Positions 5,967 through 58,985 of a stretch of DNA of 64,000 bases are shown one piece after another. Source of the DNA: Candidatus Woesearchaeota archaeon (lineage in GTDB: Archaea > Nanobdellota > Nanobdellia > Woesearchaeales > DSVV01); contig JACRPI010000020.1 of the NCBI GenBank assembly GCA_016214075.1, forward strand, positions 55,917 through 119,916, in the 5' to 3' direction. The translations under genes were made by a program, and so were the position numbers. Positions within the stretch are counted from its first letter, which is position 1. Every line of letters starts with the position of its first letter. The notes under the pieces are model-generated. The model was not told the origin of the DNA. It saw only the letters and a program-made list of their open reading frames with translations, and searched no databases.

Positions 5967-6017
5967 ACGCACCAGCAACACCTCATGTCAGGGGGACCCA
6001 TTGCGGAGCAATGGGGT
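5967..6017 (-). repeat. Dispersed hairpin element, copy 1
   Basis: Minus strand: ACCCCATTGC-TCC-GCAATGGGTCCCCCTGAC ... TTGCTGGTGCGT. Confidence 0.9.
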
Positions 6018-6124
6018 CTTTATTCTTTTTTTATTCATTGAATACTATTTTTCTAAAATAAGCTATAGTAAATAACATTAATTTTCGGATATATAACCAG
6101 AGAATGTAATGTTATTTCCTAATA

Positions 6125-6176
6125 AGTGAATCACTTTTTGCTAGGAACTAAGTTCCGATTATTAAAGTGATTCACT
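6125..6176. promoter_or_regulatory. Candidate operator upstream of cdc48
   Basis: 13-bp perfect IR AGTGAATCACTTT (6125-6137) / AAAGTGATTCACT (6164-6176), central GGAACT-A-AGTTCC, abutting a TATA-like TATAATATAAA. Confidence 0.55.
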
Positions 6177-6250
6177 ATAATATAAACTGACTCAATCCTC
6201 ATGCACAAAATATTTAAAGCGACCAGCGTTTACCAGAAACTGTGGAACCC

Positions 6251-8524
6251 ATGACAGGAAAGACAACCAAACTCAAAGTTGCGGAAGCTATCCAAGACGA
6301 TGTTAACAAAGGAATTGTCAGAATCGATTCTAATTTTATGCATGAGCTAGGGATACGTCCAGGCGATATTGTTGAAATCAAAGGAGAGCGCATTTGCTAT
6401 GGTATCGCAGATCGCGCGTATCCTGGTGACATTGGTTTGAACATTATGCGTATGGATGGTATCATGCGTCGAAACGCAAAAACAGGTATTGGTGAAATTG
6501 TTCATGTTAAACGCGGTATTGTCAAAGAAGCAAAACGCGTTACTATCGCTCCTGCACAAAAAGGAATTCTTATTCGCGCATCTCCTGCTATCTTCAAACA
6601 AGGATTGCTAGGACGACCTGTTTTGAAAGGAGATATTGTTTCTCTTGGCGGCACTTCCAGACGACGAAACACGATGAATAATTCTCCATTCTTCAACGAT
6701 ATTTTTTCTGTTCTTGATGAAGGTATGGCTGGCTTTGGTTTCAGCGATATTCGTTTTATTGTCATTGAAGCAGAACCAAAACAGGCTGTCATCGTTACTG
6801 AGGCAACAGAAGTTCGCTTTAATCCAGAAGCTGTTGAATTTGATGAAGAAAAAGTTCTTGATGTTACTTACGAAGATATTGGTGGACTTACTGATGAAAT
6901 CAAAAAGGTTCGTGAAATGATTGAACTCCCTCTCAAATATCCAGAAATTTTTGAACGTTTAGGTATTGAGCCACCAAAAGGGGTCTTGTTACACGGTCCA
7001 CCAGGAACTGGAAAGACGTTGCTCGCGAAAGCTGTCGCAAACGAAACAAACTCCCATTTTATTTTAATCAATGGTCCAGAAGTTATGAGTAAGTTTTATG
7101 GTCAAAGCGAACAAAATATTCGCAAGAAATTTGAAGAAGCAGAAAAGAACGCTCCTTCTATTATTTTTATTGACGAAATTGACGCGATCGCTATCAAACG
7201 AGAAGACAGTCATGGTGAAGTGGAGCGACGTGTTGTCGCGCAATTGCTTGCATTGATGGATGGTTTGAAATCTCGAGGGAAAGTTGTTGTCATTGCGGCA
7301 ACAAACATTCCTGACGCGATTGATTCCGCGCTCAGACGACCTGGTCGTTTTGATCGCGAACTTGAAATTGGTGTTCCTGGTAAAGAAGCACGCCTCAATA
7401 TTTTGAAAATTCACACGAGAAACATGCCGCTCACTAAGGGGTTTGATCTCAAACGCTTTGCAGATATTACGCACGGATTTGTTGGTGCTGATCTTGCATC
7501 ACTCACGAAAGAAGCCGCGATGGTTGTTTTGCGTCGCTTGCTTCCTGATCTGAAATTAAAAGAAAATGAACCTATTCCAAAAGAATTTTTAGAAAAACTG
7601 AAAATTGGCACTGAAGATTTTATTGAAGCACTGCGAACTGTTCGCCCAAGCGCAATGCGCGAAGTGCTTGTTGAAGTGCCCAACATTAAATGGGATGATG
7701 TTGGTGGTCTCGGAAACGTCAAACAAGAATTGCGTGAAGCAGTCGAGTGGCCACTCAAATTTCCTGAAGCATATGGTAATTTAGGAGTAAAACCTCCACA
7801 AGGTATTCTCCTTTATGGTCCTCCTGGCACAGGGAAAACATTGCTCGCGAAAGCAGTCGCAAAAGAATGCGAAGCAAATTTTATTTTAGTGAAAGGTCCT
7901 GAACTGTTGAGTAAATGGGTTGGAGAAAGTGAAAAAGCTGTCCGTAAAGTTTTCAAACGCGCGCGACAAACAAGTCCCACTATTATCTTTTTTGATGAGA
8001 TTGACGCACTTGCGCCAAAGCGTGGTCCAGCTTCTTCAAGCAATGTGACTGAGCGCGTTGTCAATCAATTATTGACGGAAATTGATGGGCTCGAAGACTT
8101 GACTAATGTTGTTGTTGTCGCTGCAACCAACAGACCAGATATTTTAGACACCGCGCTTTTACGCCCAGGGCGATTTGATCGAATTATTTTAGTTTCTGTT
8201 CCTGACCTTGAAGCAAGGCGAGCAATCCTCGGGGTTCACGCAAAAAATATGCCGCTCACTCCTGACGTTGATCTTGACGATATCGCGAAGCGAACAGAAG
8301 GATATGTTGGCGCGGACATTGAAGCTGTTTGTCGAGAAGCAGCAATCTTTGTTTTGCGCGAAGATATTAACGCGAAGAAAGTCACAATGAAAGCGTTTAA
8401 TCAGGCGCTTGAAAAAGTGAAACCTTCTGTGACGAAAGAAATTGAAGAATCGTATAAACAAATGGAAGGCTACTTCAAACAAGCGCACGCGAAGGAAATG
8501 GATAAGCAGACATATTATGGGTAG
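6251..8524 (+). CDS. cdc48: Cdc48/VCP AAA+ ATPase
   Basis: N-domain [10 protein letters not shown]; two Walker A (GPPGTGKT) and Walker B (FIDEID/FFDEID); RRPGRFD. Confidence 0.98.
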
Positions 8525-8670
8525 TGTTTTATTTTGTTGTCTTAGATTCGCTTCGTTGCTTTTGAATCACTATTCTTTCTTTTTTAATAAAGTATTTTCT
8601 TTTAATAAAATAAAATGATAAGTTGTGTATGTGAACTTACTGGGCGATGTTTGTTTTGGAAGGTGCGTGT

Positions 8671-9462
8671 TTAGGGACAAACTGTTCTCTCTTTCATCTC
8701 AGCATATCTTCTTTCCACAATTTCTCTGAAGAAATCTGGAACGCCATCGCGGTTTGCGAAACGATATTGTGAACCTCTTTTTGTTATTCTTCCCATTGCT
8801 ACAGCAAATCCTGAATTAGGTTTGTAGAAGTCTGCAAGTTCATGGCCTGTTCCCATAAATAAAATGCTTTTTTGAGCAGCATTTCTTTTCATATTCTGGT
8901 AAATATATCTATCTCGCATTCGTGCCGTAATCGGATAAACTCCTGTAACCATTTGCAGCCATGCTTCTATAACTACTATTGGTTGATATAATAAGCGTGT
9001 TATTTTAGGGTCTAATAATTCTGTTTCAGTTGCTTGCATTTTCGTTTCAATCTCTCTAAAATTACATTCTGCTAAAATTGCAATTATTGTAGCTGAACCC
9101 TCTTCTAAATCTGATTCTGTAAATGCTAATTCTTCTAAATCTTTGCCTTCTACACCTTCTTGGTAAAGTGCTTCGCATTTTCTTTGAATTTGTGGCGTTC
9201 TATAATTTAATGATGCGGCTCTTCCTCTTGTCATTCCGTCAGAATACATTTCTGTTATCTTTTCTCTTAAGATAATATCTTTACTTATTTGGTGTGCACA
9301 TCTGAACATATCTTTTGCTTTTTCCTGTATTCTCTTTCCTCTTTTTATCATTTCTTCTGCTTCACTTCGATCTTTTTTTAGTCTAGAAAAAAATTGGTAA
9401 ACCTTTTCTATATTCTGGTTTGGGTGATTACTTTGCACAATATACACTTCTCTTTCTTCCAT
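8671..9462 (-). CDS. Hypothetical protein
   Basis: 263-aa ORF with TATA-like element ~25 nt upstream; no recognised family. Confidence 0.7.
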   Translation of the reverse strand: MEEREVYIVQSNHPNQNIEKVYQFFSRLKKDRSEAEEMIKRGKRIQEKAKDMFRCAHQISKDIILREKITEMYSDGMTRGRAASLNYRTPQIQRKCEALYQEGVEGKDLEELAFTESDLEEGSATIIAILAECNFREIETKMQATETELLDPKITRLLYQPIVVIEAWLQMVTGVYPITARMRDRYIYQNMKRNAAQKSILFMGTGHELADFYKPNSGFAVAMGRITKRGSQYRFANRDGVPDFFREIVERRYAEMKERTVCP

Positions 9463-9692
9463 TTTCTAGAGAATCACTTTTCTTCTTTTAAACTTTTCTA
9501 AAGTGTAGTCACTAAGTAGTGATTATGCTCTCGTCGACAAAAACGCATATCCCAACATAACATTTAAAAAGGAGGACAAATTCGTTCAATGAATGTGGAT
9601 GCTGGCTCAAATACTTTCTTTTGGTTAAACTGTGTTAAACGACGTAGTTATAGCTATAAGAAGCCAATTTTAGCCTGCGTTTGCAAAACAAT

Positions 9693-9798
9693 GCCTAGGT
9701 AGTGTAGTCTGGTCTATCATGAAGCCCTGTCGAACTGCCTTTTGCAAAAAAGGTGGTAAAGAAAGGCTTCGACCCGGGTTCAAATCCCGGCCTGGGCG
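9693..9798 (+). tRNA. tRNA-Asp(GUC) with 31-nt intron at 37/38 (9733-9763); no encoded CCA
   Basis: Acceptor GCCTAGG/CCTGGGC; anticodon stem AAGCC/GGCTT; CT-GTC-G; T arm CCGGG-TTCAAAT-CCCGG. Confidence 0.93.
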
Positions 9799-9884
9799 TT
9801 TACACGCTAGCAGCGGGATTTGAACAGTTACGTTCAATTCCAACTTTGGCGTTTTAGCTCCTCGTCGGGGCGTCCATTCACATT

Positions 9885-9959
9885 GGGCCGTTAGCTCAGC
9901 CTGGCTAGAGCACAACACTTTTAATGTTGGGGTCACGGGTTCGAATCCCGCACGGCCCG
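9885..9959 (+). tRNA. tRNA-Lys(UUU); no encoded CCA
   Basis: Acceptor GGGCCGT/ACGGCCC; CAACA-CTTTTAA-TGTTG anticodon arm; GGGTTCGAATCCC T arm. Confidence 0.96.
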
Positions 9960-10045
9960 TTTCATAATAATAGTAGGCGTGCGAGATATGAAGTCTGCAC
10001 GGTGTCATATTAAAAAAACAGCATCACAATCGAAGGTGGGGAAGC

Positions 10046-19210: not shown

Positions 19211-19317
19211 GGTTTGACTTTTTTTACTTCTTTTTTTAGTATATTTTTTCTTTTCTTTCATCCTATCTTTATTTTATCTTTTTTCTTTATTTGTGTTTGG
19301 CATAAACTTTACTAATA

Positions 19318-19391
19318 ACCCCATTGCTGCGGCAATGGGTCCCCCTGACATTTCTTTTTCACTGAGCGAATATTTTATTTGTGGGTGCGTG
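19318..19391 (+). repeat. Dispersed hairpin element, copy 2
   Basis: ACCCCATTGC-TGCG-GCAATGGGTCCCCCTGAC ... CTGAGCGAATATT ... GGTGCGTG. Confidence 0.9.
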
Positions 19392-19497
19392 TTGTTGTCC
19401 TTCGTTTCTTTGGTTGGTGTTGTAAAACTTATACTCAAAGAAGTAAAGTTGTTTCTATTTCAAAAACTATTTATACTCTAATGACTTACTTCATACC

Positions 19498-20115
19498 ATG
19501 TGGACCTTCAAAAAATCGTGGAAACTTATTCTTGACAACCCTGAGCTTATTTCTTATGAACTTGCTTCAAAGGAACTTCGGGTTAGAATTGAAGCACGCC
19601 AGACAGACGAGAATATGTGGACTATTTTCAAGACATATCATGATGACGCCTCATTTACTTATACACAGGAATATCGCGCGTCAACCCGTGATGAAGCACA
19701 AAAAATAATTGCTTCTCTCCAAAATGAAAAGGTGTTGTCTAAAATAGAATTGCATGATCTCAAGCTTGTGCAGGCAAAAAAAGTTGCTGTCAAAGTTAAA
19801 CGACAGTTTAAAGATTACAATGTTGAAAAATGGAACTTTGCAGTCAATGATGAAGCGTATGAAAACGTCGTGTACGTTCGTGACGCTGATGTGAGTGACG
19901 TGAGCATTATCATGCATGAAAAAAATAAGCAATTTGAAGCAAATATTCTGTATGAACTCAAAAATGTGTTAGGTTTTGAGACGTCTGATCTTGACATTAA
20001 GCAAGAGTTGTACTATTATTCGACAAAATCTGACGACTACAAGAAAAACAATAAATTCAGTTTTGTTTTTGGCAATGTTGAAATGGGATTTGACACGCCA
20101 AATGATGAGAAGTAG
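19498..20115 (+). CDS. Hypothetical protein
   Basis: 205-aa ORF; no recognised family. Confidence 0.7.
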   Translation: MWTFKKSWKLILDNPELISYELASKELRVRIEARQTDENMWTIFKTYHDDASFTYTQEYRASTRDEAQKIIASLQNEKVLSKIELHDLKLVQAKKVAVKVKRQFKDYNVEKWNFAVNDEAYENVVYVRDADVSDVSIIMHEKNKQFEANILYELKNVLGFETSDLDIKQELYYYSTKSDDYKKNNKFSFVFGNVEMGFDTPNDEK

Positions 20116-28800: not shown

Positions 28801-29718
28801 TTACATCGCCCGTAACTTACTAATTCTATCATTAATATCCGGATGCGTCGCAAATAATCCAGTCACAAAACCTTTTGTTTTTCTAAACGGGGTTGAAATA
28901 AACAAATGCGCTGTCGCTTTATTCGCTTTATCCACAAGCGGATCAGGATCTGCTTTGATCTTTTCGAGCGCGCTTGCAAGTCCTTCTGGATTTCTTGTCA
29001 GTAACGCCCCATTCGCGTCCGCGAGATACTCTCGTCTTCTGCTTACTGCTAACTTAATCATTTCTCCGATAATCGGCGCAAGAATCGCAAGCACAAACGC
29101 AACGACAATGAGTATAATTACCAACTGGCCACCATCTTTCCGATCTCTTCCTGCGCCACCCCACAAAAAGGTTCTGAAAATAAAGTCGCTGAGAAGAATA
29201 GTGATCCCTACGAGGACTGCGGTGATGAGCATCACCCGAATATCGTAATTTTTGATGTGCGACATTTCGTGGCCTATAACTCCTTCTATCTCTTGTCTGT
29301 TAAGCTTGTTCAGTAATCCTGTGGTAACGGTGATTGACGCGTTCTTTGGATCTGTTCCTGTCGCAAACGCGTTCAATGCTGTATCGTCAATCACATAACA
29401 TTTTGGTGTAGGAATTCCTGCCGCAATCGCTACTCCTTCTACTGTGTGGAACAAATGAGGAAATTCTCGTTTGCTGACTTCTCTCGCGCCTGTTGTTTTG
29501 AGAATAATATTGCTTCCTTGAGCATACATGATGATGGTGTAGAAAATCGCGCCAAAGATTGCCATGCCAAACCCAAAGATTGGTGTTCCGTAGAGGATGC
29601 CTAAGAAATATCCAAGTATCGCGATGATGAAGATGAATACTGACATAATGAGATAGGTCTTTATTTTGTTCCATCGTACTTCTTCATGGATATTGAGTTT
29701 TGTTTCCATTTTATTCAC
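28801..29718 (-). CDS. htpX: HtpX zinc metalloprotease (M48)
   Basis: NAFATG, HEMSH, SRRREYLAD, THPDINDRI. Confidence 0.96.
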   Translation of the reverse strand: MNKMETKLNIHEEVRWNKIKTYLIMSVFIFIIAILGYFLGILYGTPIFGFGMAIFGAIFYTIIMYAQGSNIILKTTGAREVSKREFPHLFHTVEGVAIAAGIPTPKCYVIDDTALNAFATGTDPKNASITVTTGLLNKLNRQEIEGVIGHEMSHIKNYDIRVMLITAVLVGITILLSDFIFRTFLWGGAGRDRKDGGQLVIILIVVAFVLAILAPIIGEMIKLAVSRRREYLADANGALLTRNPEGLASALEKIKADPDPLVDKANKATAHLFISTPFRKTKGFVTGLFATHPDINDRISKLRAM

Positions 29719-29770
29719 TTTTCTTATTTTATTTGTTCTTCACATGTCCTTAAAATATTATTTCAAAAAT

Positions 29771-29900
29771 ACCCCATTGCTGACGCAATGGGTCCCCCTG
29801 ACAATCTTGCTTTTGCAGGTGCGTGTTTCTGCTGCTGAGCGAATATTCGCCTTATTGCTTGAATCGCATCGCAGTCCTATTGAATCCCTATATCTTTATT
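29771..29900 (+). repeat. Dispersed hairpin element, copy 3 (with extended tail)
   Basis: ACCCCATTGC-TGAC-GCAATGGGTCCCCCTGAC..GGTGCGTGTTT..CTGAGCGAATATT..GCAGTCCTATTGAATCCCTATATCTTTATT. Confidence 0.9.
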
Positions 29901-29943
29901 ATTTATTTTTTACTACTGCATACATAATTAAAAAAAGAAAAAA

Positions 29944-31605: not shown

Positions 31606-31983
31606 ATGGTCATAAAAAATGTCGTTACTGTTTTTATTTTTCATAATAATAAACTTCTTTTACTCAAAAGAAAAAAACAACCATATTTAGATTGCTGGGC
31701 TCCTCCTGGCGGGAAATTGGATGGTGATGAATCTCCTGAACAGGCTGCAGTTCGAGAGATAGTAGAAGAAGTGAATCTTCATGTTACTCTTGAAAAATAT
31801 CTTGGTTCGTATCTCAACCCAGAAACAGAAGTCCTCGATCATGTATTTACTACAACTTCTTTCTCAGGCACTGTGCATAACAACGAACCAGAGAAACACG
31901 AAACTGTTGCTTGGTTTTCCTTAGATGAAATCCCTCAAAACACGAGTTGGATAGTGAAAAGATGGCTGGAATTGAAGAAATGA
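31606..31983 (+). CDS. NUDIX hydrolase
   Basis: Nudix box GGKLDGDESPEQAAVREIVEEVNL. Confidence 0.93.
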   Translation: MVIKNVVTVFIFHNNKLLLLKRKKQPYLDCWAPPGGKLDGDESPEQAAVREIVEEVNLHVTLEKYLGSYLNPETEVLDHVFTTTSFSGTVHNNEPEKHETVAWFSLDEIPQNTSWIVKRWLELKK

Positions 31984-32880: not shown

Positions 32881-32933
32881 TTTTGTTTGCTCTCGTTGTT
32901 TTATTTTGTATTTTACTTCTTTTAATAATAAAT

Positions 32934-32995
32934 ACCCCATTCCCACTTCATGTGGGAATGGGTCCCCCTGATGTTTTTGCCTTTGTTGGTGCGTG
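32934..32995 (+). repeat. Dispersed hairpin element, copy 4
   Basis: ACCCCATTCCCAC-TTCAT-GTGGGAATGGGTCCCCCTGAT ... GGTGCGTG. Confidence 0.9.
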
Positions 32996-33037
32996 TTTTT
33001 TCTTTACTTTGCATTTTTTTACTTCTTTATTTTTTTT

Positions 33038-34344: not shown

Positions 34345-35397
34345 TTATGGTATTTTGGATAAAATTTTTTTCACAATCCCTTTCTCTGCATCCACTTCAA
34401 CAAGATCGCCGTCTTTGAGCATTCGTGTTGCATTCTTAGTTCCAATCACACAAGGGATTTTTAACTCTCTTGAGAGAATTGCTGCGTGACACACAAGTCC
34501 GCCTTCATCTGTGATAATCGCTGTTGCTTTCTCGATAAACGGCATGTAGATTGGACTTGTACTTACTGAAACTAAGATTTCTCCTTTGTTAAATATGACT
34601 CCTTTAATTGTTCGATCATTCACTATTCTGACTCTTCCCTTTACTATTCCAGGATATGCGCAGCGACCTTTGATCTCTTGTTCTTTTGTAATGGGTTCTA
34701 ACATTTCAATGATTTTTTCTGCATCAGTTCTGAAAGAAATATATTCTTTCTCATCAATGACTGCATAAACATAATTTCCTTCTTGATTCTTTCTCTCGTT
34801 ATACTTCTGCCACTCTTTTGCGAGAATTTCTTTATATGTCAGATAATTTACAGCATTTTCATTTACTCCTGCTTTTTTTGCTTCTTTTTGCGCAAGAGGG
34901 ATAATTATCTCTTCAATTATTCTTGGATAATATGATATTGCTCGTAGCTGTTCTGTCTTTTTGATCACTTCTTTGTCTTTGATTTCATTGAGAAATTCTC
35001 CTGCTCTGTAGGGAAGCGCTGTTGCATGCAGACTCAAAATGATTAAAAATTGCACTGCCTCTTGTAATGTTAGCGTTTCTTTTTTCGCAAGAATCCTTTC
35101 TGCTTGTTTATTGAGTTGTTCTGCTTTCTCAAGAAGTGTTCGTATCTTTTTTGTGTTTGTATAGATTTCTTTTGCGCATTTGTTATATGCTTCTACTTGT
35201 TCTTTTGGCCGGTAGCATCGTGCAACGTCTTTCTTTTCTTCTAGAAATAACACGTCTGGAAATCGTGCACCAAGAACTCGTTTCCATTCTTCTGATTCAT
35301 ACCATGTATGCCATAATGATGCACCAAAAAGATTAAATGGGCGCGTTAAGTAGTACTGCCAGTTTCTTGCTTTTAGAATGATGTTTATTTTGTTCAT
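34345..35397 (-). CDS. PEP-utiliser mobile (phospho-His) domain protein 1
   Basis: C-terminal GRCAYPG..AIITDEGGLVCHAAILSRELKIPCVIGT..LKDGDLVEVDA. Confidence 0.9.
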   Translation of the reverse strand: MNKINIILKARNWQYYLTRPFNLFGASLWHTWYESEEWKRVLGARFPDVLFLEEKKDVARCYRPKEQVEAYNKCAKEIYTNTKKIRTLLEKAEQLNKQAERILAKKETLTLQEAVQFLIILSLHATALPYRAGEFLNEIKDKEVIKKTEQLRAISYYPRIIEEIIIPLAQKEAKKAGVNENAVNYLTYKEILAKEWQKYNERKNQEGNYVYAVIDEKEYISFRTDAEKIIEMLEPITKEQEIKGRCAYPGIVKGRVRIVNDRTIKGVIFNKGEILVSVSTSPIYMPFIEKATAIITDEGGLVCHAAILSRELKIPCVIGTKNATRMLKDGDLVEVDAEKGIVKKILSKIP

Positions 35398-36473
35398 TGT
35401 ATCTTCCTTACAATTCCTTTCTCTGCGTCGACTTCGACAAGATCACCATCTTTCAGAATCTTTGTTGCGATTTTTGTGCCGATAATGCATGGTTTCTTGA
35501 TTTCTCTCGCAATGATCGCAGCGTGACAGATCAAGCCCCCTTCATTTGTCACAATTGCCTTGCATTTCTCCAAAACAGGCAGTAATGTTGGATTTGTGTT
35601 TATGGAAACAATAATATCTCCTTCTTGAAATTTATCCATATCATCCACTGCATTAATGATGCACACTCTTCCCTGGACAATTCCAGCACATGCACTTCTT
35701 CCCTGCACTTCTGTTTGTTCTTTCACACTGTTCTCTACAATATTGAGCTTTTCTTTTATCTTTTCATCGTAAAGGAAGATTGCTTTTTCTCTTTCATCAA
35801 AATACCACCAGCAGCCATTTTTTCGCTTGGAAATCTCTTGAACATCTTTCTGTTTTTCAAATATTTCTCTGACTTCTTCTGTTGTGCAGTATGCGTAATC
35901 TTTGGAATCAGCTCTTTTTGTTATTTCTGCTGCTTGCTTCCATATTTCTTCAATCACTGGTTGAAGTGCTCGTCTTGTTTTTTTTCGGAATGCTTGAAAC
36001 TCTTTTCTTATTTTTTCATATCTTCTTTGCTCTTCTTCAGTCATTCCTTGTTCCATCGCATATAATACATACCATGGAATGCAGGTGAGATAGAGAAAAA
36101 TATGCTCCATTTCATCAATAATCTCTCTGTACTGCTTTTTGAACTTTATATTCTTCTCTGAAAATCTCTTCATTAACGTTTCTTCTCTCTTTTGATACTG
36201 CTTCCCTTTCTTTATCCATTCTTGCAGTTTTGGATTCTTCTCTTTGATTATTTTAAGGAAATGTGTCACTACTGCTTTCATCTCCGCATCTGAGCGATAT
36301 GTTGTCGCAAATCCATCTTTATACCAACACAACTCTTTTCTAAATCTGAAGCCAGTCTCTTGTTCCATTAATGTACTATATGCTTTATAGAAAATAGAAA
36401 CATAGAAAATATTGCTCTTTCTCTCTAAATGCAATATCCAGTCTATTTTTTTGAGCGTTTTGATGGAAGTCAT
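35394..36473 (-). CDS. PEP-utiliser mobile domain protein 2
   Basis: AIVTNEGGLICHAAIIAREIKKPCIIGT. Confidence 0.9.
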   Translation of the reverse strand: MTSIKTLKKIDWILHLERKSNIFYVSIFYKAYSTLMEQETGFRFRKELCWYKDGFATTYRSDAEMKAVVTHFLKIIKEKNPKLQEWIKKGKQYQKREETLMKRFSEKNIKFKKQYREIIDEMEHIFLYLTCIPWYVLYAMEQGMTEEEQRRYEKIRKEFQAFRKKTRRALQPVIEEIWKQAAEITKRADSKDYAYCTTEEVREIFEKQKDVQEISKRKNGCWWYFDEREKAIFLYDEKIKEKLNIVENSVKEQTEVQGRSACAGIVQGRVCIINAVDDMDKFQEGDIIVSINTNPTLLPVLEKCKAIVTNEGGLICHAAIIAREIKKPCIIGTKIATKILKDGDLVEVDAEKGIVRKIQ

Positions 36474-36483
36474 CGTAGTTTTC

Positions 36484-36978
36484 TCACATATTCTCTATCT
36501 TCTTCATTACTTCTTTATACATATCAATAGAGAGATAAAAACCAGAAGAGATCATTCCATCAATATATTGTTTTGCTTCTTTTTTTGTTATTTTTTTCTC
36601 TTGCAATAAGAGTAATATTACATATACTGTTCCGTGTCTCTTTACTCTTAATGATTCTGCAACCTCTCGCGCATATATTTCATCTATAATCGCAATGGCG
36701 TTTTTCTCTCTTGCAAGAAAAATAACTTCTACATCCGCTTGGCTCAGGGGTATTTTTCTCTCTCTCTTTATTCTTGTTTTTTCTACAAGAAACTTCTTTT
36801 CTCTAATGAGGTTGTTCACATATGTCGCTTCAGTTTCTCTTCTTTCCAATCCTTTGAGAACAACTTCATCATACACACGTTGCGGTATGAATTTCCTTCC
36901 AGAAAGAAGTGAAACTTTCTCTAAAGCACGAACTTTTCCCAAATAGATAAGTGGTGATGCATCAAAGACATAATCCAT
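36484..36978 (-). CDS. PIN-domain toxin (DUF3368-like)
   Basis: YVFDASPLIYL, AIIDE..AR, HGTVYVIL. Confidence 0.88.
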   Translation of the reverse strand: MDYVFDASPLIYLGKVRALEKVSLLSGRKFIPQRVYDEVVLKGLERRETEATYVNNLIREKKFLVEKTRIKRERKIPLSQADVEVIFLAREKNAIAIIDEIYAREVAESLRVKRHGTVYVILLLLQEKKITKKEAKQYIDGMISSGFYLSIDMYKEVMKKIENM

Positions 36979-37274
36979 CAGAATGCCTCCAGATCCTCCT
37001 GGACAGCTCTATCTTTCACCCACTGAATTTTTGCTTCTTTTATTTTCGCAGTCAATGACCAGATATCTATTCCCGCAATCTCTGCCGCTTTACTTACTGT
37101 TGTTTTTCCCTCAGATAAAAGCTTGAGCGCGTGTTCGAGTCTCCACTCTTCCAACGATTTGAAGAGAAGTTTTCGTAATGCCGCTGACTTTTCCAAATGC
37201 TCTTCTTTCATATATACTTCTAATTCTGCTTCCAGGACTTCTGGAATTCTTGCGGAGATATTTACTTCAGTCAT
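36978..37274 (-). CDS. UPF0175-like antitoxin
   Basis: ISARIP, KSAALRKLL, EGKTTVSKAAEIAG; coupled to the PIN gene. Confidence 0.85.
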   Translation of the reverse strand: MTEVNISARIPEVLEAELEVYMKEEHLEKSAALRKLLFKSLEEWRLEHALKLLSEGKTTVSKAAEIAGIDIWSLTAKIKEAKIQWVKDRAVQEDLEAF

Positions 37275-37306
37275 AATGTATACATAGTATACCTTGTATA
37301 TAAAGT

Positions 37307-38671
37307 TTACGGAAGTTTTCTGACTGTTCCTTTCTCTGCGTCTACTTCGATAAGATCACCGTCTTTCAGAATCTTTGTTGCGATTTTTGTGCCGACAATA
37401 CAAGGCTTCTTCATCTCCCGCGAAACAATAGCTGCATGACTGATAATTCCACCTTCATTTGTCACAAACGCTGCTGCTTTTTGCATCGCAGGAAGGTATG
37501 TTGGATGTGTGGTGTTTGCAATGAGAATATCGCCGATCTCTACATTTTTGACATCATGGTACGATCGCACAATTTTGACTTTGCCTGTTATTTTTCCTTT
37601 AAAAGCAACAAGACCTTTTATAACTTCATTTTTCCCTTTATTCTCTATTTCTTCGATGCGTTTTTCATATTTTTCAGGAATATTTTTGTCTATAACTGTT
37701 ATTTTCAGATCTTCTCCCAAACACGTAATAATGCATGGCTTTTCTTTTCTTGCAGCAATTATTTTACTTGGATTATTTTCTTTTTTTAATGCACTTTCTA
37801 TCTCATCTAATGTCAGATATCCTACTTCTTCGTATTTTATTTTCCATGCTTTTGCTATTTCTTCAAACAAAAAAGTCCATGAATAGCAATGCATTCTTCT
37901 CAGATCATCTCTCCAATCTTTGAAGAAAATAATGTATGGCGCAAGTTCTAAGAACTTCTTTTCTTCAGGGGTTGGATTAAGGAGAGCAAACAGTTGTTTT
38001 TTGGTTAGTGCTTTTGCATCGTTGTGACTTTGAGCGGTGATATTTCTTACCCACGCTTCATCAAGGGGTCTATACCACACCACAGACCAGCTTCTGAGGA
38101 ATTGATATTCTTCTGCTATCTTTTTCGGAGAAATACCCTTGCTTATCTTTTCTTGTATCTCATGAAGCGCAGTATTTTTCCACGGCTTGTATGCTGCGGT
38201 GAGAATTTCATCTTGTTGGTGTTCTACTTTATTTCTTTTGATAATCCCATTCAGGAGCTGCTCAAAATCTGCCTGCCATGCTTCAATTGCAAGCCAGGAG
38301 AAAATACTATACACATAGTTGATTTGCATGAACTGTTCTCTGAACTCACGAAACGCTTCCTGCGTCTTTGTTCTCTTCTCTTTTTCCCACTTCTCTGTTG
38401 TCTTCTGTATCTTTTTCAGAAGGACTTGTCCTTCGTTATAGTATTTTTGAATTTGTTCTGGAGTATTGAAATATTTTTTGTACAGAAATCTTCCTACTTC
38501 TTTCTGATCTACCCCAATATAGTGGGTGAAATTCTTTTCTTGAAAATGCGTGAAAAACAGTTCTTCTTTTTTTTGCGCAAATTGCCAGACCGCATCGTAA
38601 AAAACAATGTCTAAGCCAGAGATCGTTGTGATGTCCACGCCTTCTCTCGCTAAAAGTTTTTGCCAGGTCAT
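37307..38671 (-). CDS. PEP-utiliser mobile domain protein 3
   Basis: AFVTNEGGIISHAAIVSREMKKPCIVGT. Confidence 0.9.
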   Translation of the reverse strand: MTWQKLLAREGVDITTISGLDIVFYDAVWQFAQKKEELFFTHFQEKNFTHYIGVDQKEVGRFLYKKYFNTPEQIQKYYNEGQVLLKKIQKTTEKWEKEKRTKTQEAFREFREQFMQINYVYSIFSWLAIEAWQADFEQLLNGIIKRNKVEHQQDEILTAAYKPWKNTALHEIQEKISKGISPKKIAEEYQFLRSWSVVWYRPLDEAWVRNITAQSHNDAKALTKKQLFALLNPTPEEKKFLELAPYIIFFKDWRDDLRRMHCYSWTFLFEEIAKAWKIKYEEVGYLTLDEIESALKKENNPSKIIAARKEKPCIITCLGEDLKITVIDKNIPEKYEKRIEEIENKGKNEVIKGLVAFKGKITGKVKIVRSYHDVKNVEIGDILIANTTHPTYLPAMQKAAAFVTNEGGIISHAAIVSREMKKPCIVGTKIATKILKDGDLIEVDAEKGTVRKLP

Positions 38672-50847: not shown

Positions 50848-50848
50848 G

Positions 50849-53204: not shown

Positions 53205-53300
53205 GAAAAATATAAATACTTGATGGATAACTATTCTATAGTGACGAAAGTCATAGATTACAGAAACAACAAAAAAAGAGAAAACAAAGGTGAATGAAAA

Positions 53301-53869: not shown

Positions 53870-55051
53870 ATGGAAGAAGCATTCACATTAATGAATCCGT
53901 GGTGGAGTAATAATTCTCTCAATACAGGCATCAGAAGGGAAAAATATCTCGTTCCGCTCCTTTCTTCTCTTGACAAAAAAGAAATTGCCTTTTTGACAGG
54001 TTTACGAAGAGTGGGAAAAACAACGCTTCTTAAACAAATTATTCAGGAACTCCTCGCAAAAACTGAACCAAACACCATTCTTTATCTTACTCTGGACTTT
54101 ATCACTTTTCATGGAATGACTATTCACGCGCTTATTGAAGCGTTTCGTAAAATGCATGGTCATACACGAGATAAAAAGATTTACTTATTTTTAGATGAGA
54201 TCGTCCATGTTCCCTCTTTTGAACAAGAGCTTAAGAATTTTTATGATTTGGAGCATGTAAAAATTTATGCCTCCTCTTCTTCAGCGTCTCTACTTCGTTC
54301 AAAAAATAATTATCTTGTTGGAAGATCGCGCATTATTGAGATTCATCCTCTTGACTTTTCAGAGTATCTTCTCTTTAAAGGAATCATTGTAAAAAAAGAA
54401 GAAAGTTATCTTCTTGACAAACATTTTGAGCAATATGTACTTTATGGTGGACTTCCTGAATATGTTATTACAGGAGATCCTCAAACGATTAAGACAACAA
54501 TAGAACAAATTATGTATAAAGACATTATTGCTGTTTATAACATTAAAGATAAGGAAACTGTAGAAAAACTCTTCTTGCTTCTCTGTGAGCGCGTGGGAAA
54601 GAGACTCAGTTATGCAAAGATTGCGCGTATCTTAGGATGTAGTGTTGATAGTGTTAGAAGATATATTGGTTATTTTGAGGAGACTTTTTTGTTTTATACT
54701 ATTGAACGATATGCACGCTCTCTTAATGAACGCACTTTTTCTCCTAAAAAAGTATACATCGCTGACACTGGCATTCATACTGTCTTTGTCGGGGCAAAAG
54801 ACAAGGGCGCTCTTTTTGAAAATCTTATTTTCATGGAAATAAAGGATAATTCTGTCCATTATTATTTTGAAAACGGAAAAGAAATTGATTTTATACTTGT
54901 GAAACCGAAAGAAAAGATTGCTATTGAAGTAAAATATAAAGAAAAAATAGAAAAAGAAGAGCTTTCTTTCTTTCATGAGTCTCCATTCTCAAAAAAAATA
55001 CTCGTTCAAAATTACAAAGATTTGCAGAAGCTCTCTTCCTTCATCGCTTAA
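53870..55051 (+). CDS. AAA_14 ATPase with DUF4143
   Basis: GLRRVGKTT, FLDEI, YGGLPE, KVYIADTG, LFEN, EIDF, IEVK. Confidence 0.93.
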   Translation: MEEAFTLMNPWWSNNSLNTGIRREKYLVPLLSSLDKKEIAFLTGLRRVGKTTLLKQIIQELLAKTEPNTILYLTLDFITFHGMTIHALIEAFRKMHGHTRDKKIYLFLDEIVHVPSFEQELKNFYDLEHVKIYASSSSASLLRSKNNYLVGRSRIIEIHPLDFSEYLLFKGIIVKKEESYLLDKHFEQYVLYGGLPEYVITGDPQTIKTTIEQIMYKDIIAVYNIKDKETVEKLFLLLCERVGKRLSYAKIARILGCSVDSVRRYIGYFEETFLFYTIERYARSLNERTFSPKKVYIADTGIHTVFVGAKDKGALFENLIFMEIKDNSVHYYFENGKEIDFILVKPKEKIAIEVKYKEKIEKEELSFFHESPFSKKILVQNYKDLQKLSSFIA

Positions 55052-55829
55052 TTATATTCCATCCCGCAAGAATATCATGCGTGAGAGAAGTATCTTTCTT
55101 TGGTCCAAGACCATCCTGAAATTCTTCGCCAATTACTTTTGCCGCGAGCTTTTTATAGGCAAGCGCGGCTTCACCGTCAGGATGCGTATACAGAACAGGA
55201 CCTTTCAACTGATACGCAGCGCGAACACTGCTCTCTTCAGGAATAACACCAATCACAGGAACTTCAAGGAACGCTTCAATATTCTGGATGTCAATTTCAT
55301 GCTCTTCACCACGAACTCTGTTGACAATAATTCCCACAACCTGTTTATTCAGTTCTCGCGCCATCTTGATTGTCTTTCTCGCGTCGCTCATCGCCGCTAA
55401 ATCAGGCGTGGTGATTGGAAGAACAAAATCCACCGCGTCAATAATTGTCTGCGCTTCTGGGCTCACGCCTGGCGCTCCATCGACAATAACAAGCTCTGCT
55501 TTTCCATCGAGTTCATGGATTATTGTTTTGAACCCTGCAAGATTAATTGCTTTTGAACTTTCATACGCGATGTTTCCGGGAATAATGCGAAGTCCGCACG
55601 GGTGATAATACAAACAAGAACTTAATGGTACTTTTCCGTCGAGCGCGTCATGGATAGAAGATGGAAGTGTTGGAACGCCAAGATGAATAGACATATTTGG
55701 CGCAGTAAGATCCGCGTCAATCGCAATGACATTTCTGCCAAAAAATGACAGCGCGCTTGCAAGATTGATTGATGTGGTTGTTTTTCCCACACCCCCTTTT
55801 GCACTAATTACTGCAAAGTATTTTGTCAT
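55041..55829 (-). CDS. minD: MinD/ParA-family ATPase
   Basis: KGGVGKTT deviant Walker A, IDADL, VDGAPG, IVNRV. Confidence 0.9.
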   Translation of the reverse strand: MTKYFAVISAKGGVGKTTTSINLASALSFFGRNVIAIDADLTAPNMSIHLGVPTLPSSIHDALDGKVPLSSCLYYHPCGLRIIPGNIAYESSKAINLAGFKTIIHELDGKAELVIVDGAPGVSPEAQTIIDAVDFVLPITTPDLAAMSDARKTIKMARELNKQVVGIIVNRVRGEEHEIDIQNIEAFLEVPVIGVIPEESSVRAAYQLKGPVLYTHPDGEAALAYKKLAAKVIGEEFQDGLGPKKDTSLTHDILAGWNIIKR

Positions 55830-55844
55830 TACAGGTCACTTCTT

Positions 55845-56315
55845 TTACATCAACGCTTTGATATAATCAAAATATTCCTTCATATTCTTGTAAAACTCTG
55901 TTACTTTATCAATGTGCACATGATATTCTCCTTCATCAAGTTGCGCGATCAGCGTGACATGTCTTCTGTATTCGTTAATGCTGTTGTACTCCGCTTTGCT
56001 TAATGTCTTTATGAGAATATAAAATTCCAAGAAATTCATTAATGTCTTGTCGTCGGGATAGAGGCGCTTGAGCTCCTTGCATTTCATCATCGGATGCGGC
56101 GTCAAGCTTTTTACTTTTCCTGTGCTTTTCGCGTGCTCGCCGAGCGCGTTCATCATGCATTCGCATGTCGCGATCATTCTCTCGACAACATTCTTGAGCA
56201 CGTCTGTTGTTCGTGTGTATTTTAGACTGACATAGATCAAGTGATCGACACGTTTCAATTCTTCGTATGCTTCTTCCAGTTGATCTCTCATGTTTTCACA
56301 CACTCTCTGATACAC
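55845..56315 (-). CDS. Hypothetical protein (HEPN-like helical appearance)
   Basis: ELKRVDHLIYVSLKYTRT, EYRRHVT; clean ORF. Confidence 0.7.
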   Translation of the reverse strand: MYQRVCENMRDQLEEAYEELKRVDHLIYVSLKYTRTTDVLKNVVERMIATCECMMNALGEHAKSTGKVKSLTPHPMMKCKELKRLYPDDKTLMNFLEFYILIKTLSKAEYNSINEYRRHVTLIAQLDEGEYHVHIDKVTEFYKNMKEYFDYIKALM

Positions 56316-56477
56316 ACTTCTTTATATTTCCTTCTCTTCTCTTCGAGAACTGAATTTTATAATGATTATATAATCATCTTTATAAGGTTTGTGTGTCTTT
56401 TTTGTTTTTGCTCTTCATTCTTTGTTACCGAGAGATGCTCCTTTTCGCATTTTTGCTTTCTCTCATTTTCGCAAAGT

Positions 56478-56485
56478 TTATATAC
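56478..56485 (+). promoter_or_regulatory. TATA box for the microprotein array
   Basis: TTTATATA preceded by purine-rich BRE-like GCAAAG, ~45 bp upstream of the 56528 ATG. Confidence 0.5.
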
Positions 56486-56527
56486 TATTCTTTCTGGTGA
56501 ATGATGTTACACAAAAGAGGTGTTTAG

Positions 56528-56695
56528 ATGGGAGATGCAAAAACAAGTTACAAAGTTGGTGGGAATCAAGCGAAAGGAAATCCAAAGAGTATTGAAGCGC
56601 AAAATAAAGTAGGGAATGTTCGCTCTTCAGGAACTATTAAAGGAACAACAGGAACACAACGTGGATTAGGCGCAGGATTAAAACGACGAAAATAA
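56528..56695 (+). CDS. Basic Gly/Lys-rich microprotein 1 (55 aa)
   Basis: Manual translation MGDAKTSYKVGGNQAKGNPKSIEAQNKVGNVRSSGTIKGTTGTQRGLGAGLKRRK. Confidence 0.75.
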   Translation: MGDAKTSYKVGGNQAKGNPKSIEAQNKVGNVRSSGTIKGTTGTQRGLGAGLKRRK

Positions 56696-56747
56696 TTTAT
56701 TCATATTTATAACAATTTCATAACAATAAATAAAAAAAGGTGAGAAT

Positions 56748-56915
56748 ATGCCAGATAAAAGCAAAACAAACAAAATTAAACATGGTGGTTCAGTAAGTGC
56801 TGTGGGCGCTAAGGTTACAAAAAGGACTATTGGTGAAAATGACTTTGATCAAGGTCAAGCAAGCACAAAATTTACTTCAAAACGTCAATTTGGCGGTAAA
56901 GTGAAAAGAGAGTAA
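56748..56915 (+). CDS. Basic microprotein 2 (55 aa)
   Basis: AGGTGA SD; MPDKSKTNKIKHGGSVSAVGAKVTKRTIGENDFDQGQASTKFTSKRQFGGKVKRE. Confidence 0.8.
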   Translation: MPDKSKTNKIKHGGSVSAVGAKVTKRTIGENDFDQGQASTKFTSKRQFGGKVKRE

Positions 56916-56930
56916 CGAGAGGCGAATATC

Positions 56931-57101
56931 ATGGTAGTTCGAGGACATACGCTTACTCAAGCACGGAAAGGATTTACTGATACATCTGAAAAAAATATAG
57001 CAAGAACTGTTAAAGCACAGTCTGGTTCAGGTCAGAAAGGTGCTAATGAATCAGGTGGATTTGCTGCTTCGCGTGGTCTTGGATTGAAAAAACGTTCATA
57101 A
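56931..57101 (+). CDS. Basic microprotein 3 (56 aa)
   Basis: GAGGCGA SD-like; MVVRGHTLTQARKGFTDTSEKNIARTVKAQSGSGQKGANESGGFAASRGLGLKKRS. Confidence 0.78.
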   Translation: MVVRGHTLTQARKGFTDTSEKNIARTVKAQSGSGQKGANESGGFAASRGLGLKKRS

Positions 57102-57129
57102 TTTGATAAAAAAAAGGAGGATGATTTTA

Positions 57130-57303
57130 ATGGGAGTAATACCACATGGAAAAACAACAGGTCAAGGAGTTAAAGGAAAAACAGCAGGTCTTAGCGCGAC
57201 CAAAACAGGCATTGCAGCAGGTCACTCATTTACTATATCTCGTTCAGGAAAGACAGATAAAAAATCAGGCCTTGCAGCATTAACAGGACGAGGAAAACAG
57301 TAA
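57130..57303 (+). CDS. Basic microprotein 4 (57 aa)
   Basis: AGGAGG SD; MGVIPHGKTTGQGVKGKTAGLSATKTGIAAGHSFTISRSGKTDKKSGLAALTGRGKQ. Confidence 0.8.
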   Translation: MGVIPHGKTTGQGVKGKTAGLSATKTGIAAGHSFTISRSGKTDKKSGLAALTGRGKQ

Positions 57304-57311
57304 TCTTTTTT

Positions 57312-57494
57312 ATGGCAATCAAAGGAAAAAGTACAGGACGCACTGCGCGTGAAAATGAACCAGCAGGTTTATGGCAGTCACGACAGCGCGCAGGAAAAGC
57401 GACGGGACTTAGTCGAGGATCCGCTAAACAGCTCTCTGGAAAATCTTCTGTTACTGTCAACAAACAGAAATATACCACAGATCAGTTTTCTTGA
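57312..57494 (+). CDS. Basic microprotein 5 (60 aa)
   Basis: MAIKGKSTGRTARENEPAGLWQSRQRAGKATGLSRGSAKQLSGKSSVTVNKQKYTTDQFS; followed by a T-rich tract. Confidence 0.75.
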   Translation: MAIKGKSTGRTARENEPAGLWQSRQRAGKATGLSRGSAKQLSGKSSVTVNKQKYTTDQFS

Positions 57495-57560
57495 TTTTGT
57501 TGTTTCTTTTTTCTCTTTTTTTGAGAAGTTTTAAAAGTATGTTCTTGTTTTTGGTTCTAT

Positions 57561-58724
57561 ATGAAAAAAACAGCTGTAAAAGCTTCGAAAACACTTTCTT
57601 CTCCTGCTCTCACACTCACGTTTCGCGGGTTTGAAGCGATTGCCGCCCTTGAAGTAAAAGAAATTCTTGGAAAAAAAGCTCTTGCTGCTGCAGAATATGT
57701 GACTTTCTCTGCAACAGATACAGAACTTGCGGAACTCTGCTATAAAACACAAGCAGCACGACGGGTTTTGCGGCTCTTTTGCACATTTTCTTTTTCTACT
57801 TTTGATTCTCTTGTCGCTTCGACAACAGCGCTTCTTGAAAAAGCAGATCTTTCGCTTCTTTCTGGAAAAACATTTCGTGTCGAATGCGAACGCTATGGCA
57901 ACCACTCTTTTAGCAGTCAAGAGGTTGCTGCGACACTTGGAGGTGTTTTTCTCAAGCAACAACCACAAGCGTCTGTTGGTCTTGACGATCCAGACATTAT
58001 TATTTATTGTTTTATTCGTGATGATCTTTGCATTCTCGGGCTTGATTTCGCAGGATTTGATCTTTCCAAACGAGAGTATAAAATTTACGCGCAGACTCAT
58101 ATGCTCAACGCGGCGTTTGCGTATTGCGTTGTTCGTTACACAGGGTATGCAGGGAAACAGGCGCTTGTTGATCCTCTTTGTGGCGTTGGTTTACTTCCTC
58201 TTGAAGCAGCGCTCTTTGCAACGCGCATGTCTCCACGCTTTTATCAGAAACAAATTTTTTTATTTCATCGTTTTTTGACAATTGATCTTGGAAAATTTGA
58301 CAAAGAAGTTCCTAAAAAAGTGCTTGACACGATTTCTCTTCACGGCTATGATGTGCATCTTCGTAATCTTGAGGCGTCCAAGAAACACGCGAAACTTGCC
58401 GGCGTCGCGAAGCATATCACTTTCGCGCGAGGAGACATTGAGTGGATTGACACAAAAGTTGATGAGAAATCACAGGACATTGTTGTCAGCCAAATGCCTG
58501 TTGAAGGCCGCGCAGTTTCTGAAAAAGATATGCTTAAACTCTACAAAGAGTTTTTTTATCAGCTTGAGTTTGTCATGAAGGATACTGGTGTTATGGTTTT
58601 GCTTTGTCAGAAAACAGCGGTTTTGAAAAATGCTTTGGAATATTTCATGATTGTCAAAGAACATATTGTTTGGCAAGGTGAACAGCAGTTTATTTTGGTT
58701 ACACTGAAGAAAGTGAAAACGTAA
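57561..58724 (+). CDS. THUMP-domain RNA methyltransferase (Trm14/RlmL-like), divergent motifs
   Basis: FRVECER..HSFSSQEV, VGLDDPD, DLSKREYK, VDPLCGVG. Confidence 0.85.
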   Translation: MKKTAVKASKTLSSPALTLTFRGFEAIAALEVKEILGKKALAAAEYVTFSATDTELAELCYKTQAARRVLRLFCTFSFSTFDSLVASTTALLEKADLSLLSGKTFRVECERYGNHSFSSQEVAATLGGVFLKQQPQASVGLDDPDIIIYCFIRDDLCILGLDFAGFDLSKREYKIYAQTHMLNAAFAYCVVRYTGYAGKQALVDPLCGVGLLPLEAALFATRMSPRFYQKQIFLFHRFLTIDLGKFDKEVPKKVLDTISLHGYDVHLRNLEASKKHAKLAGVAKHITFARGDIEWIDTKVDEKSQDIVVSQMPVEGRAVSEKDMLKLYKEFFYQLEFVMKDTGVMVLLCQKTAVLKNALEYFMIVKEHIVWQGEQQFILVTLKKVKT

Positions 58725-58807
58725 GTGCTATTGATCTTGCAAGTGAACTCGTTATCTTTCTATAAGAAGTAGAGGAAGTTACTCCTACTTATCGATACTT
58801 CCATAAT

Positions 58808-58985
58808 ACCCCAATGCTCTGTGGGAGCATTGGGTCCCCCTGACAATTTGCTTTTGTGGATGTGTGTGTATTGCTGGTGCGTGTTTTCTTCCTTGTTGAA
58901 TAAAGCTTCGCTAAGCTTGTGTCTGAATCGCCTCATCGAATAAAGCAATCGCTCAGCAGTCCTTGAGAATCCCTCTGTCTTTATT
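58808..58985 (+). repeat. Dispersed hairpin element, copy 5 (with extended tail)
   Basis: ACCCCAATGCTC-TGTGG-GAGCATTGGGTCCCCCTGAC..TTGCTGGTGCGTGTTT..GCAGTCCTTGAGAATCCCTCTGTCTTTATT. Confidence 0.9.

Follow-up and report, generated by a model that had tools for sequence, protein, structure and literature searches.

A candidate REP-, BOX- or PATE-like family of small intergenic hairpin repeats in one genus-level group of uncultured archaea

The subject of this work is a short intergenic element present in five copies in a 64,000-nucleotide (nt) stretch of DNA from a Candidatus Woesearchaeota archaeon (assembly GCA_016214075.1, contig JACRPI010000020.1, positions 55,917 to 119,916 of the forward strand), called here the window. 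On balance, we favor the view that these copies belong to a family of small non-coding, non-autonomous intergenic repeats of REP/BIME-, BOX- or PATE-like nature, carried by one genus-level group of uncultured archaea. The element fails specific tests of each of the named families, and it seems somewhat probable that it constitutes a new variant of that general kind. The likeness to REP/BIME, BOX and PATE/MITE/SMR repeats is drawn from the restriction of the family to one lineage, from dozens of intergenic copies lying beside unrelated genes, from mosaic and truncated forms, from gain, loss and inversion of copies, and from a covarying, wobble-free hairpin with invariant flanks that has no relative in Rfam. 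The original prediction, made from the window alone, spoke of a REP-like or MITE family; the multicopy, lineage-restricted, intergenic and covarying character of the element and the turnover of its sites speak for this, but the features by which REP, PATE and MITE elements are defined were not found in it.

The motif TGGGTCCCCCTGA occurs exactly five times in the window, at 5988-6000 on the minus strand and at 19336, 29789, 32959 and 58831 on the plus strand (copies 1 to 5, respectively), against an expectation of about 0.3. When up to two mismatches were allowed, 6 matches were obtained versus 0.29 expected, a number equaled in none of 100 shuffled sequences. Each of the five motifs has ACCCCA and a hairpin on its 5' side and GGTGCGT on its 3' side, the latter at a distance of 14, 35, 16, 16 and 32 nt in copies 1 to 5. 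A covariance model built from the alignment of 56 distinct copies scored the five at 53.8-78.5 bits, and the next-best match in the window reached 15.3 bits. Thus, the five copies first described, with their places, stems and loops, are all as stated, GGTGCGT is 14-35 nt away in every case, and the model scan proposed at that time returned exactly five copies in the window.

The distribution of the family is narrow. A strict pattern of 26 bases, with a chance expectation of well under one match, was sought in the genomes of 185,579 species, each represented by one genome. All 28 matches fell in a single metagenome-assembled genome, CAYLMH01 (GCA_964385055.1; hereafter M), which is titled 'uncultured Methanosarcinales archaeon'. 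The same pattern gave 34 matches in JGI metagenomes, 33 of them on long contigs of sample Ga0247727, the source of a second genome (hereafter G), and one in Ga0209541. Both M and G are distinct from the genome of the window, to which their shared genes are about 85-92% identical. At scores above 31 bits, the covariance model detected 77 copies in the M and G loci, which amount to 463 kb; the 130 kb obtained from relatives at the copy-2 locus yielded none. Strict matches are spaced from one per 27 kb (M) to one per 46 kb (G) of contig; with about one quarter more from the model, the estimate is about 30-45 copies per genome. The density in the window, one copy per 13 kb, is therefore above the average. 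The expectation of dozens of copies genome-wide was borne out by the 28 and 33 strict matches in M and G, while its basis, the density seen in the window, did not hold elsewhere.

A match to a known Rfam element had been named in advance as evidence against the proposal, and no such match was obtained. At the gathering threshold, Rfam models recognized only the RNase P RNA and two tRNAs in the whole window and nothing at the elements, and copy 3 gave no credible match at E<=10. Two matches in IMG/VR lack the hairpin and were attributed to chance, and a viral or plasmid origin was dismissed.

The hairpin shows strong covariation. Across the 56 aligned copies, from which the covariance model was itself built, 99.2% of the stem cells are paired, and six of the ten pairs have changed on both sides. 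None of 500 shuffles was as good, and slid registers yielded 27-40% pairing. The compensatory stem changes reported earlier for five copies are thus confirmed on a much larger set. About 375 Watson-Crick pairs were counted versus about 6 mismatches, with no excess of wobble (G-U) pairs on either strand. Stems so nearly free of wobble are at least as compatible with a DNA hairpin, or with correction of a palindrome at the DNA level, as with a stem in RNA. An attempt to infer the strand by comparing G-U and A-C mismatches was abandoned, as the mismatches are too few and unbiased. RNAalifold, applied to 17 full-length copies, supported hairpin 1 only; it also suggested a GGUGCG:CGCCU helix, both sides of which are invariant, and which therefore displays no covariation.

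The element is modular. Its core unit, module A, of about 70-80 nt, consists of (C)ATAA(T/A), ACCCCA, the stem-loop, TGGGTCCCCCTGACA, a T-rich spacer of about 15 nt ending in TTGCTG, GGTGCGTG and a T-rich stretch. The Watson-Crick stem has 8-11 bp or more; its basal CCCA/TGGG is constant and the upper stem and loop vary (TTGC/GCAA, TTGCAC/GTGCAA, TTCCCAC/GTGGGAA, ATGCTC/GAGCAT, TGCAATG/CGTTGCA, TCTCAC/GTGAGA and others) between the invariant flanks ACCCCA on the 5' side and TCCCCCTGACA on the 3' side. The loop tolerates large insertions, as indicated by locus L016 (2684-2791, plus strand), where about 35 T-rich nucleotides are inserted in it and both flanks are kept. Module B is an optional small second hairpin, GCTGAGCRAATATTYGC, placed either after GGTGCGTG or, in a long-spacer form such as copy 2, between the hairpin module and GGTGCGTG. 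Module C, optional and 3'-terminal, comprises TGAATCGCCTTACAGTCCTTGAGAATCCC, given also as TTGAATCGCCTTACAGTCCTTGAGAATCCC, with a T-rich tail resembling TTTATTATTTATTT; it has no fold of its own. A GTA/GTT difference marks subfamilies. About 40 copies consist of module A only, about 35 have the A-(B)-C layout, and a few are C-then-A or solo C. Of the window copies, 1, 2 and 4 belong to the short forms, and the long A-(B)-C layout is found in 3 and 5.

Four of about 85 copies (L022, L035, L028 and L009) are inverted doublets, in which a second, inverted hairpin module takes the place of the module C end. Inverted termini occur in these doublets only, the A and A-B-C forms having no terminal inverted repeat, and no target duplication was visible at the flanks of the four. 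The (C)ATAA(T/A) sequence precedes ACCCCA in most copies and appears to be element-borne, since it travels with the element in an inverted ortholog pair described below. A short peptide gene (ATGGGTCCCCCTGAC..., read as MGPPD...) was ruled out, because the frame is broken by spacers of 14-18 nt, by a 4-nt difference between hairpin types and by TTG in copy 5; hence the element is not coding.

Between genomes with 85-96% identity, copies have been gained, lost, truncated and inverted. One case is copy 2, which lies between the gene for ribosomal protein S7 and that for a protein of 205 amino acids (aa) (19498-20115, plus strand). The latter protein has no Pfam domain, is 51-98% identical in every relative examined, and is always encoded directly after the rpoB-rpoA-L30e-NusA-S12-S7 cluster; the relatives were found by means of it and their contigs compared. 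The promoter of its gene, AAAAACTATTTATA, about 30 nt before the ATG, is strongly conserved in all of them. The spacer between the two genes measures 287 nt in the window versus 85 nt in M, where the protein is 96% identical; 153 and 129 nt in relatives with 95% and 87% identity; and 45, 51 and 39 nt in those with 90%, 65% and 52%. The contig of a 97% relative begins inside the spacer. Copy 2 is absent from six relatives, and the larger spacers carry mutually unrelated filler. Copy 2 was therefore gained in the window lineage specifically, at a fast-evolving spot. Each close relative has a different insert there (L062, the relative with the 87% identical protein, at about 9890-9960; L069; L072), one of which is a hairpin, CAAAACTCTC...GAGAGTTTTG, which makes the S7 spacer a hotspot of intergenic turnover.

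At the copy 3 locus, the gap between lemA and the M48 peptidase gene is 225 nt long in the window, with a full A-B-C element, 75 nt in M, with a B-like block only, and 13 nt in L066, from which the element is absent and whose peptidase is 91% identical. That identity (window 28801-29709, minus strand, versus L066 18272-19180) stands beside just 52% for the 205-aa protein of L066, which may reflect either very uneven rates of evolution or transfer of the lemA-M48 pair.

Other sites are shared. Copy 4 is common to all three genomes at an orthologous site (window, L024 and L034), and the copy 5 site is filled also in G (L029). An earlier idea that copy 4 had split an ancestrally overlapping gene pair was withdrawn, as the pair in the distant relative is paralogous (29% identity). 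Small changes of gene order are seen near copies 3 and 4: a NUDIX hydrolase gene (31606-31983, plus strand, versus L024 5684-6085) differs in position between the syntenic regions, and the L024 region has additional genes for a VWA-domain protein and a 241-aa protein.

Module A is present at L010 (M), and unrelated sequence occupies the orthologous L049 (G). L026 (M) and L058 (G) are one orthologous site, and each has a complete A-B-C unit, but one unit is inverted relative to the other, together with its ATAAT leader and T-rich tail. Subtler changes include a difference in hairpin subtype (short versus long) in the orthologs L011/L051, L019/L058 and L040/L005, a 20-nt B block that is an indel between L048 and L017, and, also in L017, the compensatory replacement of a C-G pair by T-A at the base of the stem, accompanied by other decay. 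The comparison of filled and empty sites in close relatives, suggested in the original prediction, thus revealed differences in presence, absence and orientation (copy 2, copy 3, L010/L049 and L026/L058). Homogenization of the hairpin subtype within each genome was also considered and rejected (p=0.11, not significant).

Several observations weigh against the repeat interpretation, and the first of them concern the age of the copies. Non-orthologous full-length copies within one genome have a median identity of 71% and a maximum of 84%, with 54% between the motifs, which argues against a recent burst. Many sites are common to genomes that differ by about 13-15% in their genes, in a sample biased toward shared intact copies. 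The motifs are nevertheless nearly invariant across about 77 copies, and those copies that came as by-catch, in loci fetched for another copy, have mostly 1-2 substitutions per 27 motif positions. Between orthologs, motifs are 93-98% identical versus 63% for the spacer and 66-73% for the flanks, a contrast partly built in, as the loci were fetched by exact motif; three ortholog pairs free of this bias have one motif change in two pairs and five in the third. Near-invariant motifs in old copies look like the product of purifying selection in situ, which is not predicted for a purely selfish element. They suggest either a binding protein with a role at the host level or a long-lived, REPIN-like maintenance.

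The same applies to the search for a mobilizing enzyme. The window, the 527 kb around the 80-odd copies and the intervals between closely spaced copies, which hold housekeeping genes, yielded no transposase. Three Y1/RAYT probes gave nothing real in a tblastn search of the 527 kb of loci; weak matches at 19368-19614 of the window and at L031 341-448 belong to unrelated open reading frames (ORFs) and not to HUH/Y1 transposases. Pfam detected no transposase among 28 ORFs of the window and the loci, no multicopy ORF was found near the copies, and no IS605-type (tnpA/tnpB) gene was found in the window and loci. Mobilization by an HUH enzyme (IS200/IS605 or RAYT), as first proposed, is thus left without a counterpart in this DNA. 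Neither a target-site duplication nor an exact border could be defined; the copy-2 insertion, of about 200 nt, is larger than module A, and its site holds a different filler in every lineage.

How the element compares with known repeats has to be considered family by family. Like REP/BIME sequences and REPIN-RAYT systems (PMC2817692, PMC3116915, PMC3733652), it consists of high-copy extragenic hairpins with invariant bases around a varying paired stem. It shares with REP/BIME also the formation of mosaics with other short motifs, vertical persistence at orthologous sites with occasional gain or loss, and occasional inverted doublets. REP/REPIN-RAYT palindromes, however, bear a conserved GTAG or CGTC tag at one end (PMC3733652), whereas here the host is archaeal, the tags are ACCCCA and TCCCCCTGACA, and extra long modules (GGTGCGTG, B and C) are present. 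REP/REPIN sequences are typically inverted pairs, and most of the roughly 85 copies here stand singly, 4 being doublets. The partner enzyme of REP/REPIN-RAYT systems is typically encoded by a single-copy gene elsewhere in the genome; no RAYT gene lies in the window or the 527 kb of loci.

An archaeal precedent is provided by the palindrome-bearing, transposase-free repeats of Haloquadratum walsbyi (PMC3119063). Like the PATE/MITE/SMR elements of that report, the repeats studied here are archaeal, non-coding, about 50-200 nt long, more numerous than transposons and endowed with a near-terminal palindrome; in both, interiors are heterogeneous, and core-deleted or terminal-only versions and strain-specific insertions occur (PMC3119063). 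Terminal inverted repeats or target duplications are not evident in most copies of the haloarchaeal elements; here, the A and A-B-C forms have no terminal inverted repeat, and no target duplication was discerned. PATE palindromes, in contrast, are located near both ends and shared with resident IS605-type transposons (PMC3119063), while only the 5' palindrome is conserved here. The hairpin of module B is internal and of another sequence, the two kinds of element are not similar in sequence, and the lineage is another one. PATE elements insert 3' of a fixed 4-6 nt target, a place in which our element has (C)ATAA(T/A), apparently its own.

Classical (DDE) MITEs are likewise short, non-coding and multicopy, with filled and empty sites among relatives. 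The terminal inverted repeats typical of them are restricted here to the four doublets, at whose flanks no duplication is seen. The BOX element of Streptococcus pneumoniae is modular (boxA-boxB-boxC), intergenic, present in tens to about 100 copies and has no known transposase. Our element resembles it in having three ordered modules, of which the middle and 3' ones are dispensable, in being intergenic and in its predicted folding; BOX is, however, bacterial and unrelated in sequence, and it is not known to have a hairpin with invariant flanks and a variable stem. Correia (CREE), ERIC and other bacterial MITEs equipped with promoters, terminators or processing sites affect the transcription of their neighbors, so that the orientation of their insertion matters, a feature comparable to the T-rich polarity and orientation bias described below. 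They are set apart by clear terminal inverted repeats and target duplications, neither of which is evident in most copies studied here.

One plausible mechanism for such a repeat family would involve formation of the hairpin in single-stranded DNA or as a cruciform. Together with the invariant C-rich flanks, it could then serve as a putative recognition site of a trans-acting protein, possibly a transposase or nuclease, or a domesticated descendant of one, encoded elsewhere in the genome, which would copy or maintain the elements. Such a protein would account for near-invariant motifs amid drifting linkers. In a more specific version, which we regard as rather unlikely, the elements would be more than genomic parasites, and this would be an archaeal counterpart of a domesticated REPIN-RAYT-type system or an entirely new protein-element pair: one lineage-specific protein would bind ACCCCA, the hairpin and TCCCCCTGACA, together with GGTGCGTG, in single-stranded DNA or RNA, selection would keep the approximately 40 old copies, and the host would use them as polar stops or insulators.

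It is also conceivable, albeit with low probability, that the copies represent about 30-45 paralogous small structured RNAs or cis-acting RNA elements, in which the hairpin and the motifs UCCCCCUGACA, GGUGCGUG and GAAUCGCC...GAAUCCC would be protein-binding or seed sequences under host selection. The contrast between near-invariant motifs and drifting linkers, among paralogs as well as orthologs, would agree with this, as would the strong covariation of the hairpin and the compensatory change in L017. In addition, T-runs on the sense strand after GGTGCGTG and module C could end a transcript, and a closing GGUGCG:CGCCU helix is possible. However, no position-specific promoter-like signal was found upstream of the element, only T-richness. 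Covariation supports hairpin 1 alone, its stems are almost free of G-U pairs and show no strand preference, and the variable segments, not being conserved between orthologs, cannot be guides. Even close relatives differ by copies that are truncated, permuted, inverted or lost, and the family has no Rfam relative and is absent from the more distant relatives sampled.

Narrower RNA identities were rejected. Archaeal C/D box small RNAs have C (RUGAUGA) and D (CUGA) boxes bracketing guides of 10-12 nt; in our element CUGA is present, there is no C box, and the spacer is the part least conserved between orthologs (63%), which does not fit a guide-RNA scaffold. As judged by eye, the element is far too small for the 5' end of a group II intron (GUGCG), and hammerhead or HDV-like ribozyme cores had no support from Rfam.

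The genomic context bears both on the repeat reading and on a further possibility; ORF calling in the loci was crude. The element is intergenic in 72 of 75 cases, beside unrelated housekeeping genes. On its 5' side there is either the end of a co-directional gene (36/72), at a tight distance of about 55-95 nt, or the start of a divergent one (36/72); on its 3' side, the end of a convergent gene (49/71) or a co-directional start (22). Gene ends are thus more frequent on the 3' side (49/71 versus 36/72, p=0.027), and within co-directional gene pairs 25 copies are antisense versus 13 sense (p=0.07). The content of T on the sense strand is 55% upstream of the element, 44% in the spacer and 41% downstream, versus 31% overall, with A at 20-24%. 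A T-rich strand is a termination signal in archaea. For a repeat with such a sense strand, insertion would be tolerated mainly where this polarity is harmless, facing gene 3' ends, or antisense within co-directional pairs.

The element could itself be a polar cassette that terminates or insulates transcription, dispersed by some mobile mechanism and since kept by the host, although we give this somewhat less credit than the RNA alternative; it is compatible with a mobile origin. In this case, the T-rich sense strand and the hairpin would stop polymerases arriving from the 5' side, ending co-directional upstream genes and shielding convergent ones from antisense read-through. The T-richness of the sense strand (41-55%) and the gene ends at both sides speak for this, the antisense excess is expected if sense orientation terminates, and copies 3 and 4 lie antisense within co-directional gene pairs. 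Such orientation biases are only modest, though, and about 40 copies for about 1,500 genes cannot be a general terminator. Archaeal intrinsic termination requires oligo-T only and no hairpin, and the invariant C-rich flanks, GGTGCGTG and module C would be left unexplained. An uninterrupted T-run 3' of GGTGCGTG was considered as a mark of short forms being terminated RNAs, and no association was found (p=1.0). A 5' leader or riboswitch of the downstream gene was rejected, as the downstream neighbor is a convergent gene end in most cases (49/71).

Very improbable is an operator role, in which a dimeric transcription factor would bind the palindromes of a regulon: the palindrome does often lie 50-120 nt upstream of divergent gene starts (36/72), but its half-sites vary freely while remaining complementary, the opposite of sequence-specific recognition, gene starts are missing from both relevant sides of half of the copies, distances are not fixed and the neighboring genes are functionally unrelated. 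Origin-recognition boxes (judged by eye) were discarded, as copies are dispersed, and the window was uninformative as to a replication-strand bias from GC skew.

The five window copies are all intergenic and flanked by unrelated genes, as was originally noted. Copy 1 (5961-6023, minus strand, 58.3 bits) is a short form consisting of module A, laid out as ATAAAG and ACCCCA, a hairpin (CCCATTGC/TCC/GCAATGGG), TGGGTCCCCCTGACA, 14 nt and GGTGCGT; its neighbors are the divergent Cdc48 gene, 224 nt off, and the 3' end of a 140-aa ORF. Separate from the repeat family is a perfect 11-bp hairpin, ATCTGTGCGTC-TATTAATG-ACGCACAGAT, located downstream of copy 1 at about 5870-5905 (minus strand), before the end of that ORF. 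Copy 2 (19312-19396, plus strand, 53.8 bits) is a module A with the long, 35-nt spacer, in which a B-like block (ACTGAGCGAATA) separates the hairpin module from GGTGCGTG. It has the S7 gene on one side and, on the other, the conserved promoter of the gene for the 205-aa protein, and it belongs to a segment of about 200 nt (about 19249-19450) found in the window lineage only.

Copy 3 (29765-29912, plus strand, 78.5 bits) is a full-length A-B-C form with module A at 29765-29830, the module B hairpin at about 29833-29852, module C at 29859-29889 and a T-rich tail reaching about 29912; its neighbors are lemA and the M48 peptidase gene, to each of which it is antisense. Copy 4 (32928-33000, plus strand, 73.5 bits) is a short form with an 11-bp stem (CCCATTCCCAC/GTGGGAATGGG) and a fold z of -4.7, located between the genes for the CoA-binding and ATP-grasp subunits of an ATP-grasp/CoA-ligase pair, again antisense to each. 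Copy 5 (58802-58986, plus strand, 70.1 bits), downstream of a THUMP methyltransferase gene, is a long form with module A at 58802-58888 (stem CCCAATGCTC/GAGCATTGGG), in which the GGATGTGTGTG/GGTGCGTG block is duplicated, and module C at 58947-58986. The match of 15.3 bits, at about 8522-8675 (plus strand) downstream of Cdc48, is a degenerate, hairpin-less sixth relative with a C-like block (TTAGATTCGCTTCGTTGCTTTTGAATCACTATTC) followed by ACTGGGCGATG...GGAAGGTGCGTGTTTAG; this hairpin-less variant is present also in L049.

A separate matter is a number of other features of the window. At 1585-1665 (minus strand), a perfect 10-bp closing stem, GACGCGCCAA...TTGGCGCGTC, surrounds a hairpin, CCCATGCC-TGAA-GGCATGGG; this structure is 82% conserved with L003 6109-6210 of a related metagenome-assembled genome, has no Rfam match at E<=1 and overlaps a called 192-aa ORF (1542-2120, minus strand). 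A tRNA recognized by Rfam (46 bits) at 9693-9798 (plus strand), beside tRNA-Lys(TTT) at 9884-9960, probably contains an intron, since it spans 106 nt and was missed by ARAGORN. A full-length archaeal RNase P RNA (141 bits) is located at 60342-60662 (plus strand). Three paralogous genes at 34345-38671 (minus strand), for proteins of 350, 359 and 454 aa with a C-terminal PEP-utilising mobile domain, are 66-74% identical in the DNA of their first 240 nt; two short ORFs separate the third gene from the other two, which adjoin each other.

Much is known of small transposase-free repeats in bacteria, but in archaea they have barely been catalogued beyond haloarchaea and Sulfolobus. The family described here is a compact and easily searched example from an uncultured lineage, in which old, diverged copies with almost invariant motifs are unusual and point to a putative dedicated binding protein. 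Its motif is a sharp metagenome marker for this genus-level group, and gains and losses of copies are usable for strain typing. If the motifs are indeed maintained by the host, the long-lived, vertically inherited partnerships between repeats and enzymes would be extended from bacteria to archaea.

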